Shown here: piece by piece, positions 26,955 to 42,587 of the stretch
How the letters are laid out: every line of letters starts with the position of its first letter
Numbering within the stretch: the first letter of the stretch is position 1
Assembly: GCA_021413465.1 (NCBI GenBank)
Contig: JAIOQG010000004.1
Span: 1 to 42,587, forward strand
DNA from: Alphaproteobacteria bacterium
GTDB taxonomy: Bacteria; Pseudomonadota; Alphaproteobacteria; Micropepsales; Micropepsaceae
Reading direction: 5' to 3'
Length of the DNA stretch: 42,587 nt
Position numbers and translations under genes: made by a program
The notes under the pieces: model-generated
Database searches by the model: none
The model's input: only the letters and a program-made list of their open reading frames with translations
Told to the model about the DNA's origin: nothing

Positions 26955-28089
26955 ATGCGTGCGGAAATGGAATCGATCTCCGAGCAAATCCAGCAATCGC
27001 TGGCTTTGCTGAGGAGGCATCTTTGACCTCGATACCGCTCGCCGGCGTCTCGACGAACTAAACGCCAAGGCCGAAGACCCCAAAATCTGGAACGATCCTG
27101 CCGTCGCGCAAAAACTCATGCGCGAGCGCAACAAGCTCGAAAAGGCGCTGACCGACTACGCCCGGCTGGACGCGGACTATCGCGACAGCGTCGAGATGAT
27201 CGAACTGGCCGGCGCTGAGGGCGAAGCGGCGCTTCTCGCCGAAGCCGAACAGGGCTTACGCCAAGTTTCCGTGCTCGCCCACGATCTGGAGATGCAGTCG
27301 CTGTTCTCGGGCGAGGCCGATGGCAATGATTGCTATCTGGAAATTCACGCAGGCGCCGGCGGCACGGAAAGCCAGGACTGGGCCGCGATCCTGCTGCGCA
27401 TGTACACGCGTTGGGCCGAGCGCCATAAGTTCAAATGGGAATTGATCGAAGAGAGTGCCGGCGAAGAGGCCGGCCTCAAGTCGGCAACGATCATGATCAA
27501 GGGCGAAAACGCCTTTGGTTGGGCCAAGACGGAGTCGGGCGTGCACCGCCTCGTCAGAATCTCGCCTTTCGATTCCAATGCCCGCCGCCACACGAGCTTC
27601 GCCAGCGCCTGGGTCTATCCCGTCGTCGATGAGAACATTCAGATCGACATCAACGAGAAGGATCTACGCATCGACACTTATCGCGCCAGCGGCGCGGGCG
27701 GACAGCACGTCAACAAAACCGAAAGCGCCATCCGCATAACCCACATTCCGACCGGCATCGTCGTGTCTTGTCAAAACGATCGATCGCAACATAAGAACCG
27801 AGCAACCGCCTGGGGCATGCTGCGCTCGCGTCTCTACGAGTTCGAACTTGAAAAGCGCGAGGCCGTTATCGACGCGCAGAACGCGACGAAATCCGACATC
27901 GGGTGGGGGCACCAAATTCGTTCGTATGTGCTTCAGCCGTACCAGCTGGTGAAAGATTTGCGTACGGGTGCGCAAAGCTACTCGCCGCAAAACGTGTTGG
28001 ACGGCGATCTCGACGCGTTCATGCAGGCGTCATTGGCGCAACGCCTAAAAGGTGGCGCCGATGCGCCACCTGTCGAAGATCTAGAATAG
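26955..28089 (+). CDS. prfB: Peptide chain release factor 2 (programmed +1 frameshift; join 26955..27023, 27025..28089)
   Basis: ORF0 encodes [23 protein letters not shown] and ends at the CTT TGA C slip site. The +1 frame continues [22 protein letters not shown].. with SPF (RISPFDS) and GGQ (SGAGGQHVN) motifs. Confidence 0.95.
27011..27027 (+). promoter_or_regulatory. prfB +1 frameshift site: internal Shine-Dalgarno-like GAGGAGG followed by CTT TGA C
   Basis: The sequence gaggaggcat ctttgac matches the canonical RF2 autoregulatory frameshift cassette (SD-like element, short spacer, CUU UGA C). Confidence 0.85.
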
Positions 28090-34322: not shown

Positions 34323-35576
34323 TCACACCGGCCGCAGCAACACGTGTTTCTTCTTGCCCAGCGAAAGCTTGATCACGCCCTCGGCCGTCAAATGGCTTTC
34401 GCTCAGCAGCATCTTTTCGTCCGACACCGCTTCGTCGTTGACGCGCAATCCCCCGCCTGCCGCTTGCCGCCTGGCATCGCCGTTTGACGTGGTAAGGCCC
34501 GCGCGCGTGAAAGCGCCGAGAACGCCGATACCGGCTTTAAGCTCCGACCGCGCCACCTCGATCGTAGGTAAGTTCGCCGACAAGCCGCTGCCTTCAAAGG
34601 TTTGCCTTGACGTTTCGGCGGCGCGCTCGGCCTCCGCCCGCCCGTGACAAAGCGCCGTCGCTTCGTTCGCGAGCACCTTCTTTGCATCGTTCAGTTCTGC
34701 GCCCTGCAGCGCCTCGAGCCGCGCAATCTCCTCGAGCGGCAGATCCGTGAACACGCGCAAGAACCGCCCGACATCGGCGTCCTCGACATTCCGCCAGTAC
34801 TGCCAGAAATCGTAAACCGACAGCATGTCCGCCGACAGCCACACGGCGCCCGACACCGACTTGCCCATCTTCGCGCCCGACGACGTCGTGATCAGCGGCG
34901 ACGTCAACCCGAACAATTCGACGTTGTCGGTGCGGCGCGCCAGATCGATGCCCGAGACGATATTGCCCCACTGATCCGACCCGCCCATCTGCAGACGGCA
35001 GCCGTAACGCCTGTAGAGTTCGGCAAAGTCGTAGGCCTGAAAGATCATGTAGTTGAATTCGAGGAAAGTCAGCGGCTGCTCGCGATCAAGCCGCAACTTC
35101 ACGCTATCCATCGCCACCATGCGGTTGATCGTGAAATGCCGCCCGATATCGCGCAAGAACGGAACGTATTGCAGCTTGTCGAGCCATTCCGCGTTGTCGA
35201 CCATGATCGCGTCGGTCGGCCCGTCGCCGAATTTCAGAAACCGGCGATAGATCTCCATGTGGCGAATCTTGTTCGCCTCGATCTGTTCGTCGGTCAAAAG
35301 CTGGCGCGACTCATCCTTCCCCGACGGGTCGCCGATCTTGGTGGTCCCGCCACCCACGACAACGATCGGCTTATGCCCGCCGCGCTGCAGCACCCGCAAC
35401 CGCATAATCTGCGTCAAGTTGCCGACGTGAAGGCTTGGCGCGGTGCAGTCGAAGCCGATATAGGCGGCCACGCGCTCCTTCGTCATCAACGCATCGAGCC
35501 CGTCTTGGTTCGTGCATTGGTGCAAATGTCCGCGCGCGGCGAACTCGTTCAAGAATGCGGAGCGAAACGCGCCCAT
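34323..35576 (-). CDS. tyrS: Tyrosine--tRNA ligase
   Basis: HIGH-type motif (SLHVGNL), KMSKS-type motif (KMGKS), and a C-terminal S4-like domain. 417 aa. Confidence 0.96.
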
Positions 35577-35641
35577 GATCTATAAAAGCCTTCAGAGTCG
35601 GGGAACAAGGGCCGGGTGTGTAGCACGAAAGGAGGCTTAGC

Positions 35642-36736
35642 TTGAAGGCGATAGGCTTGATGAGCGGCACCTCGATGGACGGCATCGACGTCGCGATCTT
35701 GGACACCGGCGGGGAGCGCGTAGACGCGTTCGGCCCCACGCTTTTCCAGCCTTATTCCCCGGAAATGCGCCAGCGACTGCGCGCAGCGCTCAGCACCGGC
35801 GCGTCAATTCGCGCCGCCGGACCGCTTACGCCTGAGATCGAACGCCTCGAACGCGACCTGACCGATGCCCATGCCGATGCGGTCAATACACTGCTGCGAG
35901 AATCGAAACTCCGCCCGTCGCAGATCGACATGATCGGCTTCCACGGCCAAACCCTCATCCATCGTCCGGCGGAACGCATGACGCTGCAAATCGGGTCGGC
36001 TCCAAGGCTGGCCCTGCGCACGCAGATCGACGTCATAAGCGACTTCCGCACCGCCGATGTCCGCGCTGGAGGGCAGGGGGCACCGCTTGTGCCGATTTAT
36101 CACGCAGCCCTCGCCGCAGATCGCGCGCCGGTCGCGGTCCTCAACATCGGCGGCGTCGCCAACGTCACCTTCGTCGGTCGCGGTGGCGATCTTCTCGCCT
36201 TCGACACCGGCCCAGGGAACGGCCCAATCGACGACTGGGCGCTGAGATACACCGGCAAGCCGATCGATGAAGCGGGCGCGCTCGCCGCAAGGGGACACCC
36301 AAATCAAAACGTTATCGCGCATTTATTGACGCACGCTTATTTCGCCAAGCCCGCGCCAAAATCGCTCGACCGCATGGATTTCGCTTTAGACATGGCGAAA
36401 AATCTGGGCGTCGAAGACGGGGCCGCCACGCTCACCGCCTTCACCGCGCGCTCGATCGCAAAGGCGCGCGAACATTTTCCGCAGAGCCCGCGCGAATGGA
36501 TCGTCTGCGGCGGCGGCCGGCACAATCCCACACTCATGCGCGAACTTCGCGCCGCGCTCCCGGACATGAGTGTGATCACAGCCGAAGACGCCGGCTGGCG
36601 CGGCGACTTCATCGAAGCGGAAGCTTGCGCCTACCTCGCCGTGCGCTCGTGGCGTGGCTTGCCGATCAGCTTTCCCATGACGACCGGCGTTCGCCGCGCC
36701 ATGACGGGCGGCACGCTGTCGACTGTTAAGCGCTAG
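35642..36736 (+). CDS. anmK: Anhydro-N-acetylmuramic acid kinase
   Basis: (M)KAIGLMSGTSMDGIDVAI.. N-terminus and ..GGGRHNPTLM.. are typical AnmK motifs. TTG start at 35642. Confidence 0.9.
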   Translation: MKAIGLMSGTSMDGIDVAILDTGGERVDAFGPTLFQPYSPEMRQRLRAALSTGASIRAAGPLTPEIERLERDLTDAHADAVNTLLRESKLRPSQIDMIGFHGQTLIHRPAERMTLQIGSAPRLALRTQIDVISDFRTADVRAGGQGAPLVPIYHAALAADRAPVAVLNIGGVANVTFVGRGGDLLAFDTGPGNGPIDDWALRYTGKPIDEAGALAARGHPNQNVIAHLLTHAYFAKPAPKSLDRMDFALDMAKNLGVEDGAATLTAFTARSIAKAREHFPQSPREWIVCGGGRHNPTLMRELRAALPDMSVITAEDAGWRGDFIEAEACAYLAVRSWRGLPISFPMTTGVRRAMTGGTLSTVKR

Positions 36737-37389
36737 CCGCTTTCCTCGACCGGCGGCATGCGCATGTCGAGATAGTCTTCCACCGTCTTCACCAGCTCCG
36801 GCAGGTTCTGGTCGAAAAAGTGGTTGGCGCCCTCGATCTTCACCTGCGTGATCTTGATCCCGCGCTGCGCATTTAAGCGGTCGACCATTTTTTGCACGTC
36901 GGCTTCCGGCGACACTTGGTCGTTGCGGCCATGCACGATCAGACCCGAAGCGGGGCAGGGGGCAAGGAACGTAAAGTCATAGATATTGGCCGGCGGTGCG
37001 ATCGTAATGAAGGCGTGAATCTCGGGCCGGCGCATCAGCAACTGCATGCTGATCCAAGACCCGAACGAAAATCCGACCACCCAGCAGGTCTGCGCCCCGG
37101 GATTCATGGTCTGCAGCCAATCGAGCGCCGCGGCGGCGTCCGACAATTCGCCGATCCCCCCGTCAAAAACACCTTGGCTGCGACCAACGCCGCGGAAATT
37201 GAACCGAAGGACCGAACAACCGCGCCGCTGAAACGCATAGAACATCTCGTAGGTGACCCGATTGTTCATCGTGCCGCCGTGCTGCGGATGCGGGTGCAGA
37301 ATCAGCGCAATCGGCGCCGTCTTGTGCTTTTGATGCTGGTACTTCCCCTCAAGACGGCCCGAAGGTCCGGTAAAAATCACATCAGGCAT
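36733..37389 (-). CDS. Alpha/beta-fold hydrolase (COG2945-like)
   Basis: 218 aa. Nucleophile elbow GFSFG (GxSxG). ..ALILHPHPQHGGTMNNRV.. and ..VHGRNDQV..ANHFF are typical of this small esterase-like family. Confidence 0.75.
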   Translation of the reverse strand: MPDVIFTGPSGRLEGKYQHQKHKTAPIALILHPHPQHGGTMNNRVTYEMFYAFQRRGCSVLRFNFRGVGRSQGVFDGGIGELSDAAAALDWLQTMNPGAQTCWVVGFSFGSWISMQLLMRRPEIHAFITIAPPANIYDFTFLAPCPASGLIVHGRNDQVSPEADVQKMVDRLNAQRGIKITQVKIEGANHFFDQNLPELVKTVEDYLDMRMPPVEESG

Positions 37390-37496
37390 CGCAGCTCATT
37401 GACCTCGTTCGGCGTCTTTGTTGATTCGGGAAGTTGGAATAAAAAATCGCAAGCGCTAAAAAATACTACATTGTTTCAATGGGTTATCCCCGCCAT

Positions 37497-37511
37497 GCAG
37501 TTTGTAACTGC
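37497..37511. promoter_or_regulatory. Perfect inverted repeat GCAGTT-TGT-AACTGC abutting the -35 element of the suf operon promoter (candidate operator)
   Basis: The 6-3-6 perfect palindrome was read directly. It ends 6 nt upstream of the predicted -35 hexamer in the AT-rich divergent intergenic region. The binding protein is unknown. Confidence 0.3.
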
Positions 37512-37517
37512 AAATAC

Positions 37518-37546
37518 TTGACCCCCTCACTCAGGAAATCTATATC
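37518..37546 (+). promoter_or_regulatory. Candidate sigma-70 type promoter for the Rrf2-regulator/suf operon
   Basis: TTGACC (37518-37523), 17 nt spacer, TATATC (37541-37546), about 120 nt upstream of the Rrf2 gene start. Confidence 0.4.
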
Positions 37547-37664
37547 GCACACTGGAAAGCGACCGGGCGCGCTTTCTAACACGGGTCAGGGGCGCAAAAG
37601 CAAGCAAATCGAGCATGCCCAAGCCGCCTGCGATGGCACCGTCATCAAATAGGAGTCCCGTTCG

Positions 37665-38135
37665 ATGAATCTCAGCACCAAAGGCCGTTACGCCGTCATG
37701 GCGATGGTTGATCTGGCGAGCCACAGCAAAGGCAAGCCCGTCGCCCTCAACGAGATAGCGCAACGCCAAGAAATTTCACTCTCCTATCTGGAACAATTGT
37801 TCGCCCGCTTGCGCCGAGGCGGCTTGGTTGTCAGCGCGCGCGGGCCTGGCGGCGGCTACAAGCTGGCGCGCACGCCGGAAGAAACCCGCATTTCCGATAT
37901 CATGATGGCAGTGGATGAGCCTCTCAAAGCCACCCGCTGCGAAATGGGCTCGCCCCGCGGCTGCACCGGCCAGCAGGGCCGATGCACGACCCACGATCTG
38001 TGGGAAGAACTCAGCCGCCAGATCCAGATATTCCTGAGCGCCGTGACGATCGCCGACGTCGTGAACAAACGCGTCCTCGGCATGAGCCGCCCAGTCGAAT
38101 TCGCAGCCGCAAAGCAAGACAACGTGGCGGCCTGA
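37665..38135 (+). CDS. Rrf2 family transcriptional regulator (IscR-like, Fe-S cluster ligating)
   Basis: MNLSTKGRYAVMAMVDLA.. winged-helix N-terminus (SLSYLEQLFARLRRGGLVVSARGPGGGYKLA) and a Cys cluster C-x7-C-x6-C-x2-H. It heads the suf operon. Confidence 0.85.
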   Translation: MNLSTKGRYAVMAMVDLASHSKGKPVALNEIAQRQEISLSYLEQLFARLRRGGLVVSARGPGGGYKLARTPEETRISDIMMAVDEPLKATRCEMGSPRGCTGQQGRCTTHDLWEELSRQIQIFLSAVTIADVVNKRVLGMSRPVEFAAAKQDNVAA

Positions 38136-38141
38136 CCACGC

Positions 38142-39308
38142 ATGACGCGCATCTACCTCGACCACAACGCGACCTCCACTCTGCGCCCCGAAGCGCGGGC
38201 GGCGCTGTTGTCGGCGCTCGACGAGACAGGCAATGCCTCATCGGTTCACGCCGAAGGTCGCCGCGCCCGCTCGCGCATCGAGACGGCGCGTGGCCAAGTG
38301 GCGTCATTGGTGGGCGCTTCGCCCGGCGAAGTGATCTTCACCAGCGGCGGCTCGGAGGCGAACGCGCTTGCGTTGAAGGGCACCATTCAGGCCGCGGCCG
38401 CAGCGGGCGAGCGCATCACGCGCCTCATCATTTCGGCGATCGAGCACGACTCGATCCGCGACAACGCCGCGCAGTGCGAGGAAACCATACCGGGACTGCG
38501 CGTATTGACCTGTCCGGTAACGCCCCAAGGCATCGTCGACATCGTCGCCCTGAAAACGATGCTTCGCGAAGGCAAAGGCCGCGCCCTCGTGTCGATCATG
38601 TCCGCCAACAACGAAACCGGCGTAGTTCAGCCGCTTGCAGACGTGATCGCCGTGGCAAAGGCCCACAACGCCCTGGTTCACACCGACGCCGTTCAAGTCG
38701 CGGGCAAGCGCCAGACAAACTTTGCGGCACTGGGTCTCGATTACATGACGCTCAGCGCCCACAAATTCGGCGGCCCGGCGGGCACGGGCGCGCTCATCGT
38801 GCGTGACGGCGCACCGCTCGCGCGCCAAATCGCCGGAGGCGCCCAGGAACTGGGTCGCCGCGCCGGCACGGAAAACATGGCCGCCATCGCGGGCTTTGGC
38901 GCTGCCGCACAAGCCGCTGCACAAGACATGTCCTCGTGGGAAACGCGTACCGCTTGGCGCCAGGCTCTCGAGCGCGCGCTTGTTGCCGAATGCCGCGATG
39001 CCGTGATTTTCGGCAGCAACGAAAGCCGTTTGCCCAATACAATTTGTATTGCCGCCCCTTCGGTGCCGGCCGAGAACATGGTGATCGCGCTCGATCTCGA
39101 TGGCTTCGCCGTCAGTGCTGGCGCCGCCTGCTCGTCGGGCAAAGTCGCCCAGAGTCACGTTTTGACCGCTATGGGGGTTGAGCCGCACCTCGCGCAATCG
39201 GCAATTCGCGTAAGCATCGGCTGGAATTCGACGGAACAAGAATTAACGGCGTTCGCCGAGGCTTGGACACGCATCGTCAAGCGTGCCCAAGCCCGCGTCG
39301 CTGCCTGA
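38142..39308 (+). CDS. Cysteine desulfurase (NifS/IscS-like, class V aminotransferase)
   Basis: PLP-lysine motif SAHKFGGPAGTGAL, catalytic Cys loop SAGAACSSGK, and MTRIYLDHNATS.. N-terminus. Confidence 0.9.
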   Translation: MTRIYLDHNATSTLRPEARAALLSALDETGNASSVHAEGRRARSRIETARGQVASLVGASPGEVIFTSGGSEANALALKGTIQAAAAAGERITRLIISAIEHDSIRDNAAQCEETIPGLRVLTCPVTPQGIVDIVALKTMLREGKGRALVSIMSANNETGVVQPLADVIAVAKAHNALVHTDAVQVAGKRQTNFAALGLDYMTLSAHKFGGPAGTGALIVRDGAPLARQIAGGAQELGRRAGTENMAAIAGFGAAAQAAAQDMSSWETRTAWRQALERALVAECRDAVIFGSNESRLPNTICIAAPSVPAENMVIALDLDGFAVSAGAACSSGKVAQSHVLTAMGVEPHLAQSAIRVSIGWNSTEQELTAFAEAWTRIVKRAQARVAA

Positions 39309-39318
39309 AGGATAAACG

Positions 39319-40770
39319 ATGGCCGAACAAGCAACGATAGATGCGGTCGCGGCGCGCGGCGCCGAGCGCTACAAATACGGCTTCGTCACCGACATCGAAA
39401 GCGAGAAGGCCCCCAAAGGCCTGACCGCCGACACCGTGCGCTTCATCTCCGCCAAAAAGAACGAACCCGAATGGATGCTCGAATGGCGTCTCGCCGCTTT
39501 CGAGCGCTGGCAAGCGATGCGCGAGCCCAATTGGGCGCGCGTGCATTACCCGAAGATCGATTTTCAAGACGCCTATTACTATTCCGCGCCGAAATCGAAG
39601 CCGAAGCTCGACAGCCTCGATCAGGTCGATCCGAAAATTCTTGAGACGTACAAGAAACTCGGCATCCCGATCACCGAACAAAAGCTGCTCGCGGGCGTGG
39701 CCGTCGACGCCGTCTTCGACAGCGTGTCGGTCGCAACGACGTTCAAGGGCAAGCTGAAAGAAGCCGGCGTCATCTTCTGCCCGATCTCCGAGGCGCTACA
39801 AACGCACCCCGAACTTGTCCGCAAGTATTTGGGCTCCGTCGTGCCGGTGACCGACAACTTCTACGCCACGCTGAACTCCGCTGTTTTCAGCGACGGTTCG
39901 TTCGTCTACGTGCCGCCGGGCGTGCGCTGTCCGATGGAACTCTCGACCTACTTCCGCATCAACGAGGCCGAGACGGGGCAATTCGAACGCACGATCATCA
40001 TTGCCGACAAGGGTTCGTACGTTTCCTATCTTGAAGGCTGCACCGCGCCGATGCGCGACGAGAACCAACTCCATGCCGCGGTCGTCGAATTGATCGCGCA
40101 CGACGACGCTGAAATCAAATACTCGACGGTTCAAAACTGGTACCCGGGAGACGAAAACGGCAAAGGCGGCATCTATAATTTCGTGACCAAGCGCGGCGAT
40201 TGCCGCGGCGCACGCTCGAAAATCAGCTGGACCCAAGTTGAAACCGGCTCGGCCATCACCTGGAAATACCCCAGCTGCATTTTGCGCGGCGATGAATCGG
40301 TGGGCGAGTTTTTCTCGATCGCCATCGCCAACAACTATCAGCAAGCCGACACCGGCACGAAAATGATCCATCTGGGTAAGAACACCCGCTCGCGCATCAT
40401 CTCCAAAGGCATCAGCGCAGGCCACGCGCAAAACACCTATCGCGGCCTGGTCAGCGCCCACGCCAAGGCCGAGAACGCGCGCAACTACACCCAGTGCGAT
40501 TCGCTGTTGATCGGCTCGAAATGCGGCGCCCACACCGTGCCCTACATCGAAGCTCGCAATCCCACGGCGCAGTTCGAGCACGAAGCGACGACCTCGAAGA
40601 TCAGCGACGATCAGTTGTTCTATTGCCTGTCGCGCGGCATTCCCGCCGAAGAGGCCGTGACCCTCATCATCAACGGCTTCTGCCGCGAAGTGCTGCAGAA
40701 CCTGCCGATGGAATTTGCCGTCGAAGCGCAAAAACTGATCGGCATCAGCCTCGAAGGAAGCGTCGGATGA
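39319..40770 (+). CDS. sufB: Fe-S cluster assembly scaffold protein SufB
   Basis: 483 aa. ..[37 protein letters not shown].. and ..[14 protein letters not shown].. are strongly conserved SufB segments. Confidence 0.96.
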
Positions 40771-41036
40771 ACGAAGGTCGCGAAGTTTGGTTTGTTCGCC
40801 GGGAATATGCGTTTCAGAATTATCCGGTCACCTGGCAAGGATGGCTTGCGACAATCCTGTTTGGCGCCCTTGTCATCGTCATGGTGGCGCTCGCCGCGGT
40901 GATAGCCTCCGCACTCTTTGTCGTTTTGATGGTGGCGCTCGTCATAGCGGTTACCATCGGCTTCTTACGTTGTGTTTTCGTTCATTCCACTAGGTCGCGA
41001 GCCGATCGCGATGATCGCAGGAACTTCGATGCTTGA
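40767..41036 (+). CDS. Hypothetical small membrane protein (89 aa, about 2 TM) embedded between sufB and sufC
   Basis: The ATG overlaps the sufB stop (ATGA), and its own stop overlaps the sufC start (ATGCTTGA, 8 nt). The hydrophobic stretch [42 protein letters not shown] is flanked by charged ends. I recognise no family. Confidence 0.5.
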
Positions 41037-42587
41037 AATCAAAGACCTCCACGCCACCGTCGGCGGCAAGAAAATTCTAAACGGACTGACGCTCGCGCTC
41101 GGCGCCGGCGAGGTCCACGCCATCATGGGTCCGAACGGCTCAGGCAAATCGACCTTGTCCTACGTCCTGGCCGGCCGTGATGGTTATGAAGTGACGTCGG
41201 GGTCGATCGTCTTTCGCGGGCAGAACGTGCTGGAGATGAAGGCGGAGGCGCGCGCCGCCGCCGGAATTTTCTTGGCGCTGCAATACCCCGTCGAAATTCC
41301 GGGCGTGACCACCATCAATTTTCTGCGCACGGCCCTCAACGCTCAGAACAAAGCGCGCGGCGAACCCGAAATCGATGCAGTCACATTCTTGAAGCGCTTC
41401 AAGGCAGAGCGCGAAAAACTGTCGATGAGCGACGAGATGGTCAAGCGGGCGGTCAACGTCGGCTTTTCGGGGGGCGAGAAAAAGCGCAACGAAGTGTTGC
41501 AAATGGCGATGCTAAAGCCGCGCTTGGCCATACTCGATGAAACCGATTCCGGACTCGACATCGACGCGTTGAAACTGGTCGCAGGCGGCGTCAACGCGTT
41601 GCGCGAGCCCGACCGCAGCTTCCTGGTCATCACCCACTATCAGCGCCTGTTGGACGCCGCACCGACACCGGAAAGCGCCTTGGCATCGCTCCACGCGAAA
41701 CTGAGCGACAGCTTACCCGGTTCTTCGTGGCTACGCTCTGTACGGGCGGATGCGCTCGCGCGCGTATTGCGCGACGGTCTGCCTCATCGCCGTGTCGAAG
41801 CCTGGAAATACACGGACTTCCGAAACAAACTCGAACCGGCATTCGCGTTGGCACAAAGCAGAGCCGATGCAGCGCGCGCGCTGTTCGAAGGCCTCAGCGC
41901 GCATCGTATCGACATCAACGGCGGTAAAGTTTCCCGCCTGCCAACAGGCGACGCACTTCCCGACGGCTTGGAAATTCTAAGCCTCGCCGAGTCGATCGCG
42001 ACCCCGGCGCTATGGCTGCGTCAGTGGTTGCAGCCCGGCGACGGCGCGCTTGAAAATCTCAATCTGGCTTTCGTCACCGACGGCGCCTTGATCCGGGTGG
42101 GGCAGGGCACGCGCGTGGTCGATCCGGTGTTCTTGCACTATCGCTTGTCCGAAGGCGCCATGACGCAAACGCGCTCGGTCGTCATGCTTGAGGAAGGCGC
42201 AGAGCTAACCTTGGTTGAACTCGACGACGGCACGACCGACGCTCAAAGCTTCGCCGGAGCGGTGACGGCCATCGCGCTCGAACCCGGCGCGAGGCTGCGC
42301 CATCTTCGCGTCACGTCGAACGGGGCGTCAGCCATCGTCGTTCGCAGCGACACGATCGAAATCGCCCGCGACGCCAGTTATGACGGCGCTATTCTCTCTT
42401 CCGGCGCCGCGCTCGCGCGCCATCAAATGCAAGCTCGCTTGATCGGCGCGGGTGCCTCGTTCGACATCGCTTGCGCTTACGCCGCCGGCAAGGCCCAGCA
42501 CACGGACTACGCGCTGGAACTCGTGCACGAGGCGCCGCACACGCGCAGCCGCATCCTTTCAAAAGGCATTGCCTCGGGCAACGGCCA
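41029..42587 (+). CDS. sufCD: Fe-S assembly ATPase SufC fused in frame to SufD (3'-partial, runs off the window)
   Basis: Hand translation from ATG 41029 shows no stop to the window end, so the ORF track cannot list it. SufC motifs present are Walker A GPNGSGKST, Q-loop LALQYP, signature FSGGEKKR, Walker B LAILDE and H-loop VITHYQRLLD. From about 41656 the same frame continues as the SufD N-terminal region ..LSDSLPGSSWLRSVRADALARVLRDGLPHRRVEAWKYTDF.. and the SufD beta-helix. Confidence 0.8.
   Translation, partial: MLEIKDLHATVGGKKILNGLTLALGAGEVHAIMGPNGSGKSTLSYVLAGRDGYEVTSGSIVFRGQNVLEMKAEARAAAGIFLALQYPVEIPGVTTINFLRTALNAQNKARGEPEIDAVTFLKRFKAEREKLSMSDEMVKRAVNVGFSGGEKKRNEVLQMAMLKPRLAILDETDSGLDIDALKLVAGGVNALREPDRSFLVITHYQRLLDAAPTPESALASLHAKLSDSLPGSSWLRSVRADALARVLRDGLPHRRVEAWKYTDFRNKLEPAFALAQSRADAARALFEGLSAHRIDINGGKVSRLPTGDALPDGLEILSLAESIATPALWLRQWLQPGDGALENLNLAFVTDGALIRVGQGTRVVDPVFLHYRLSEGAMTQTRSVVMLEEGAELTLVELDDGTTDAQSFAGAVTAIALEPGARLRHLRVTSNGASAIVVRSDTIEIARDASYDGAILSSGAALARHQMQARLIGAGASFDIACAYAAGKAQHTDYALELVHEAPHTRSRILSKGIASGNG

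Follow-up and report, generated by a model that had tools for sequence, protein, structure and literature searches.

The suf locus

The window, the whole stretch of 42,587 nucleotides that was analysed here, ends within a suf operon in which sufC reads directly into sufD. The features of the locus are collected in Table 1. The locus is a standard alphaproteobacterial suf operon in its layout, running from rrf2 through a nifS-like desulfurase gene, sufB, a small membrane ORF and sufC to sufD. Operons of the rrf2, nifS-like, sufBCDS type usually constitute the housekeeping Fe-S system in alphaproteobacteria. When one genome per GTDB species was scanned, 80 loci came back, and L001 (JANOFM010000091.1, in the MAG ‘Alphaproteobacteria bacterium SOY_64_metabat_57’) is the nearest of them. 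Its gene order is identical to that of the window, including the small membrane ORF, and sufS, sufT and sufA come after sufD. The window SufD is 69% identical to that of L001 and 71% identical to the SufD of a Micropepsaceae MAG; judged from relatives with a SufD of 436 aa, about 125 sufD codons would lie past the end of the window.

Table 1. Positions of the suf operon features in the window, with the evidence for each.
Feature	Position	Strand	Evidence
rrf2/iscR-type regulator, first gene of the operon	37665..38135	+	Pfam Rrf2, E 6e-40; identical protein on Logan contig L161 (SRR15633504)
NifS/IscS-like class-V aminotransferase (cysteine desulfurase)	38142..39308	+	Pfam Aminotran_5, E 7e-58; same position in L001
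sufB, intact, 483 aa	39319..40770	+	SUFBD_core, E 4e-78, and SufBD_N; 96.5% identity to L001 SufB
Small conserved membrane ORF, 89 aa, between sufB and sufC	40767..41036	+	No Pfam family
sufC remnant, codons 1-209, lacking the C-terminal 39 codons and the stop	41029..41655	+	93.3% identity to L001 SufC 1-209
Deletion junction, GAC/GCC	41653..41658	+	137-143 nt present at this point in L001, L081, L082, L083 and L084 (DNA alignments)
sufD from about codon 9, lacking its own start, cut by the window end	41656..42587	+	SufBD_N and SUFBD_core

The ORF between sufB and sufC has a long hydrophobic stretch and probably encodes a membrane protein. It shares bases with both neighbours, its ATG with the sufB stop codon (ATGA) and its last 8 nt with the sufC start, an arrangement that looks like translational coupling at both ends. 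L001 (55% identity) and the metagenome locus L081 (35% identity) have it in the corresponding place, and it may represent an uncharacterised accessory gene of this type of suf operon. A scan for promoters and terminators across 40700-42587 found nothing relevant. Within the sufD part, a weak GGAAAG precedes a TTG at 41680 that is in frame and is a candidate internal restart that could supply free SufD; it would not rescue SufC.

Elsewhere in the window, prfB (release factor 2; 26956-28089, plus strand) carries a textbook programmed +1 frameshift site, with a short ORF from the ATG at 26956 leading into AGGAGG CAT CTT TGA C at about 27010-27027 and the PCRF and RF-1 domains lying in the +1 frame.

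One reading frame across sufC and sufD

An earlier reading made from the sequence alone (the sequence-only reading) had reported that no stop codon interrupts the frame opened by the ATG at 41029. Translation of 41029-42587 on the plus strand bears this out, giving 519 codons, zero stops and a frame still open at the window end, which rules out an error of hand translation as the source of the open frame. Residues 1-209 of the product are normal SufC, and SufD occupies the product from about residue 210 onward. The SufC equivalog model TIGR01978 aligns to residues 2-210 over its positions 1-209 of 243, with 301.4 bits against a cutoff of 212.8, and E. coli SufC (PDB 2D3W/5AWF) aligns without gaps over positions 1-210 of 248. 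The motifs of the ATPase are all intact, comprising Walker A (34-41), the Q-loop (82-87), the signature FSGGE (146-150), Walker B (166-171), the D-loop (174-177) and the H-loop THY (202-204). Homology to SufC then stops at D209, whose codon GAC occupies 41653-41655, so that the description of SufC as normal through the H-loop and ending near 41655 was accurate. Positions 210-243 of TIGR01978 find no counterpart in the fused ORF, which leaves the ABC alpha/beta domain short of its post-H-loop beta-hairpin and helix.

Alignment of the ORF to family profiles, a check that had been suggested along with that reading, shows the SufC part reaching model position 209 of 243 and then giving way to SufBD_N (residues 233-367, E 6e-9) and SUFBD_core (residues 375-518, E 5e-27). 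The SufD equivalog model TIGR01981 scores 96 bits against a cutoff of 222, with the window ending at model position 173 of 275; SufD's C-terminal helical domain, which binds SufC, falls past the window end. With the halves matching at E 4e-90 and 2e-27 and a single clean gap against L001, the joining of two suf families in one ORF is, on sequence comparison, not a product of chance.

Extent of the missing segment

The missing segment was delimited in a six-way DNA alignment of the window, L001 and the four closest metagenome loci (L081, L082, L083 and L084). Pairwise DNA alignment of the window with L001 contains a single clean gap of 143 nt, between ...TTGGAC and GCCGCACC..., and comparison with the closest suf operons, proposed earlier as a search for an allele about 150 nt longer, yields 137-143 additional nucleotides in all five nearest relatives. 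What the window lacks is sufC codons 210-248, the sufC stop and the first seven or eight codons of sufD, including its start. In L001 a SufC of 248 aa ends at its own stop codon, and sufD, encoding 436 aa, begins with an ATG that shares one base with that stop. The same one-base overlap, as TGATG or TAATG, is found in five of five nearest relatives, as is a conserved SufC tail, [HY]IVPD[RK]VHVL..GRI..SGGP.LA..LE..GY.

These comparisons refine the sequence-only reading at three points. It had put the absent part of SufC at about 45 residues plus the stop codon; the absence stands, and by the nearest relatives the length is 39 residues. It had counted an intergenic spacer among the losses, which is mistaken, as the one-base overlap in all five relatives means that a spacer was never there. 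It had also taken the frame to continue as the N-terminal region of SufD; the continuation is indeed SufD, from which codons 1 to 7 or 8 have gone as well. Its estimate that an in-frame join would arise by chance about one time in three is upheld. Because sufC and sufD overlap by one base, a deletion joins them in frame when its length is 2 mod 3, and 143 is 47x3+2.

The lost tail has not moved to another place nearby. A search of the 42.6-kb window in any frame failed to find it (best tblastn match, E 0.58), the window holds no second sufC, the sole SufC-like region being 41029-41655, and no backup Fe-S system is visible in the 42.6 kb.

Structural context of the lost segment

The AlphaFold2 model of a full-length homologue (P0096, whose numbering minus 37 gives window numbering) places the tail in a strand at 252-257, a second strand at 260-265 and a helix at 267-276, with mean pLDDT values of 94, 91 and 85 for successive ten-residue blocks across 251-280. 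The lost piece is thereby confidently predicted to be a beta-hairpin and helix of the ABC core. To our knowledge, every characterised ABC nucleotide-binding domain has 30 or more residues past the H-loop, and the tail of 37-55 residues seen in 145 of 146 related loci (see below) agrees with a rule of at least 30 post-H-loop residues for ABC ATPases.

When the window protein is modelled with AlphaFold2, the helix that follows the H-loop runs directly into the SufD N-terminal helices at 214-225 and 233-249, and nothing takes the place of the hairpin and helix; pLDDT is 58 over residues 201-210, which end at the junction. The ABC part is still folded in this model, with a mean pLDDT of 85. As AlphaFold2 is insensitive to destabilising truncations, the model of the fused protein was given no weight with respect to stability.

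The geometry of the complex is also relevant. SufC docks on the helical domain at the C-terminus of SufD, in which N- and C-terminal helical subdomains flank a nine-turn beta-helix. About five residues separate D209 of SufC from the N-terminal helical subdomain of SufD in the fused ORF and, by our reading of the description of the structure, that subdomain sits at the far end of the beta-helix, which measures about 40 angstrom. A SufC fused in this way could not, we infer, reach its normal docking site on the same SufD, and the fused product would be a defective ATPase.

Occurrence of the junction in related sequences

Among the 146 related loci that carry both genes (76 from genomes and 70 from metagenomes), sufC is separate in every one. 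SufC measures 246-261 aa in 75 of the 76 genome loci, the exception being L058, in which an early stop leaves 113 aa; in all 70 metagenome loci, 37-55 residues extend past the point at which the match to the window's SufC ends. By either measure 145 of the 146 retain the tail. A collection of 5.8 billion proteins also yielded partial SufC sequences, and in the six closest (81-91% identity) the tail is present and forms the end of the protein.

A degenerate pattern covering every codon choice for the junction peptide HYQRLLDAAPTPE finds the window once and had 0 matches in 241 million metagenome records, and the search of 5.8 billion proteins returned no close match covering the whole fused ORF. 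No fragment from the same species came out of protein searches targeted at the junction region or run with SufC residues 100-210. Little weight attaches to this, since the word-indexed protein search missed SufC relatives at 88-93% identity (L001 and L081) that contig scans had found, and its negatives for close relatives are weak. As far as these sequence collections reach, the lesion is private to this sequence.

Public collections do contain predicted proteins that combine ABC_tran and SufBD domains, as the window ORF does, and are thus read-through ‘SufC-SufD’ proteins (e.g. P0021, P0060, P0068, P0093, P0112 and P0034). Each is a single-member cluster, and most have out-of-frame linker peptides that indicate a frameshift near the sufC stop. 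All those inspected retain at least the beta-hairpin after the H-loop, and the junction of the window is present in none of them.

Error-derived suf ‘fusions’ are numerous in these collections more generally (P0001, P0002, P0007, P0021, P0063, P0077, P0086 and P0105). They include tandem duplications of SufC as well as SufB-SufC and SufC-SufD read-throughs with frameshifted linkers. In P0077 the peptides LSLIHIS and EDVYKRQ presumably reflect adapter sequence, as they resemble what we take to be translated Nextera adapter. The frequency of singleton, error-derived SufC-SufD, SufB-SufC and duplicated-SufC proteins suggests that this locus is often mis-assembled or mis-called.

Constraint on the sufC remnant

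The comparison of SufC residues 1-209 with L001 gives a dN of 0.046 and a dS of 0.89 (dN/dS of about 0.05) at the identity listed in Table 1. Mean identity to 79 outgroup SufC proteins is 68.0% for the window and 67.1% for L001, so the window branch is not longer than that of its sister. The remnant shows no relaxed constraint, which implies that the event was either not biological or very recent. For practically its whole history the remnant appears, from these rates, to have been under the constraint normal for SufC. The same pattern would follow from a functional fusion, for which, however, relatives sharing the junction would be expected.

Source data and assembly

Exact-protein look-up placed the window Rrf2 and AnmK proteins on two Logan contigs of SRA run SRR15633504. 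One of these (L162) is 100% identical to the window over 1251 nt (35518-36768); the other (L161) is 99.7% identical over 1456 nt (37267-38722), and its 4 SNPs fall close together in 38137-38622, three of them inside the nifS-like gene and the other just upstream of it. Judged by these identities, the same strain as that of the window occurs in SRR15633504. Its contigs there are only 1.25-1.46 kb long and the junction is covered by neither, and exact look-ups of the window SufB, the NifS-like protein and the small membrane ORF for contigs of the same species gave no match. The short contigs and the four SNPs suggest that coverage was low or that the strain was microdiverse. The data set has the look of a metagenome, where minority alleles or errors of local assembly are plausible.

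The window itself contains no N and has long intact ORFs of up to 1155 aa. No direct or inverted repeat of note lies at the junction in the window, the two breakpoints share no sequence in relatives, and there is no obvious microhomology at the junction. A classical repeat collapse is therefore unsupported. Assembly collapse in the strict sense, across a repeat, had been one of the explanations suggested by the sequence-only reading; with no repeats flanking the junction in either the window or its relatives, it was rejected.

Explanations for the joined frame

The sequence-only reading had offered a natural fusion, a deletion allele and an assembly collapse. The core common to all three is sound, in that the 3' end of sufC, its stop and the start of sufD are missing and the join is in frame; the fusion and the collapse across a repeat are not supported. 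We read the evidence as a 143-bp lesion that is private to the assembly and evolutionarily instantaneous, and not as an evolved SufCD fusion. Loss of 143 bp across the sufC/sufD boundary places SufC 1-209 in frame with SufD from about residue 9. For the loss being a local assembly or consensus artefact we put the chances at about even, and of an artefact and a real defective allele the artefact is somewhat more likely. The origin would then lie in the sequence and not in the organism, as a local assembly or consensus error in strain-heterogeneous, metagenome-type data; a chimeric read bridging a thinly covered stretch might have produced it, or a scaffold gap wrongly closed. Since the product would be a defective ATPase, the deletion seems unlikely to be the true, dominant allele of the organism. 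Several observations run counter to an artefact, namely the lack of a repeat or microhomology, the good assembly of the window and the concordant divergence on both sides of the junction. Furthermore, a real allele would have to keep the frame and join cleanly between codons to be viable, and chance gives such a join in roughly one case in three.

A real but non-adaptive, very recent loss of 143 bp, one that left a crippled SufC tethered to SufD, we regard as a credible, if less probable, account. An ISC system, a second sufC or a further copy of suf elsewhere in the genome might make it tolerable, or it might be a minority or transient allele that the assembler followed. The junction is clean, keeps the frame and falls between codons, an assembly collapse has no repeat to explain it, and the rest of the window is well assembled. 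Strain-level SNPs beside the operon in SRR15633504 are consistent with several alleles coexisting, and the undecayed remnant fits a very recent event. Against this, a sufC lesion in a housekeeping Fe-S system should be strongly counter-selected, the 42.6 kb offer no backup system, and the relatives examined keep the tail, the early stop in L058 apart. A chimeric contig, in which sufB-sufC of one organism has been joined to sufD of another in a conserved stretch, is a highly improbable source of the junction. SufB and SufC are indeed highly conserved among co-occurring relatives, and the window ends inside sufD; however, L001 is nearest for both halves, the pairing of 93% identity in SufC with 70% in SufD follows the same trend as every other pair among the five relatives, GC3 is similar on the two sides (0.78 and 0.73), and such a join alone would not remove 143 nt. 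An inter-organism chimera was rejected on the concordant divergence and GC3, and even when pooled with anything not considered here it takes up a very small share of the probability.

A natural, functional SufC(1-209)-SufD subunit would permanently tether one SufC in the SufBC2D scaffold, with an ATPase that works in the absence of its C-terminal hairpin and helix, possibly stabilised by the N-terminal helices of SufD. The preserved frame and the intact ATPase motifs are compatible with such a subunit, as are the strong purifying selection on the SufC part and the AlphaFold2 fold of the ABC part, which is weak evidence given the insensitivity of the method to truncations, and natural fusions of SUF components do exist (PMC6006210, PMC6231488). 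The constraint on the remnant is explained equally well by a recent event, however, and among the genomes and contigs searched no second one has the junction. Both the length and the sequence of the lost segment are conserved across the range between E. coli and the nearest relatives, and the model places it with confidence in the core. The link of some five residues enters SufD at its N-terminal helical subdomain, while the docking site of SufC is C-terminal. The claim of a natural covalent SufCD fusion is thus not supported, with the junction present in 0 of 146 loci, 0 metagenome matches and the loss of a universally conserved part of the ABC core. We consider a functional fused subunit unlikely, and it is very unlikely that a Micropepsaceae-like alphaproteobacterium really uses a covalent SufC(1-209)-SufD polypeptide.

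Comparison with known systems and significance

The locus shares its operon context, gene order and SufC motifs with the canonical SufBC2D system (E. coli; PDB 2D3W, 2ZU0 and 5AWF), and its SufD likewise has an N-terminal helical region and a beta-helix core. It differs in that SufC is without residues 210-248 and its stop, SufD is without seven or eight codons and its start, and the two form one ORF. In L001, sufC and sufD are separate, and the window is without the 143 nt that make them so. Compared with known systems, the locus is canonical SufC plus SufD minus 143 nt.

Natural fusions in this pathway include SufCB in Blastocystis, Pygsuia and Stygiella (PMC6006210) and SufDSU in Preaxostyla (oxymonads and Paratrimastix) (PMC6231488). 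They resemble the window ORF in covalently linking a component of the SUF scaffold, or the ATPase, to a pathway neighbour. These fusions recur across several species, with C-B and D-S-U as partners, whereas the C-D junction of the window is a singleton. The fused ORF also has part of the ATPase fold deleted, so the fold of its SufC module is predicted to be incomplete.

Were a functional fusion true, SufC would be an ABC ATPase able to do without its C-terminal beta-hairpin and helix, and one SufC could be tethered to the far end of SufD, altering the stoichiometry and geometry of SufBC2D. Structural models of ATP-driven Fe-S cluster assembly would then change, a consequence that the evidence makes unlikely. 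Should the junction be artefactual or belong to a defective allele, it would serve mainly as a quality flag. Annotation pipelines would label the ORF a ‘SufCD fusion’, and the genome would seem to be sufC-less or to have a novel architecture.
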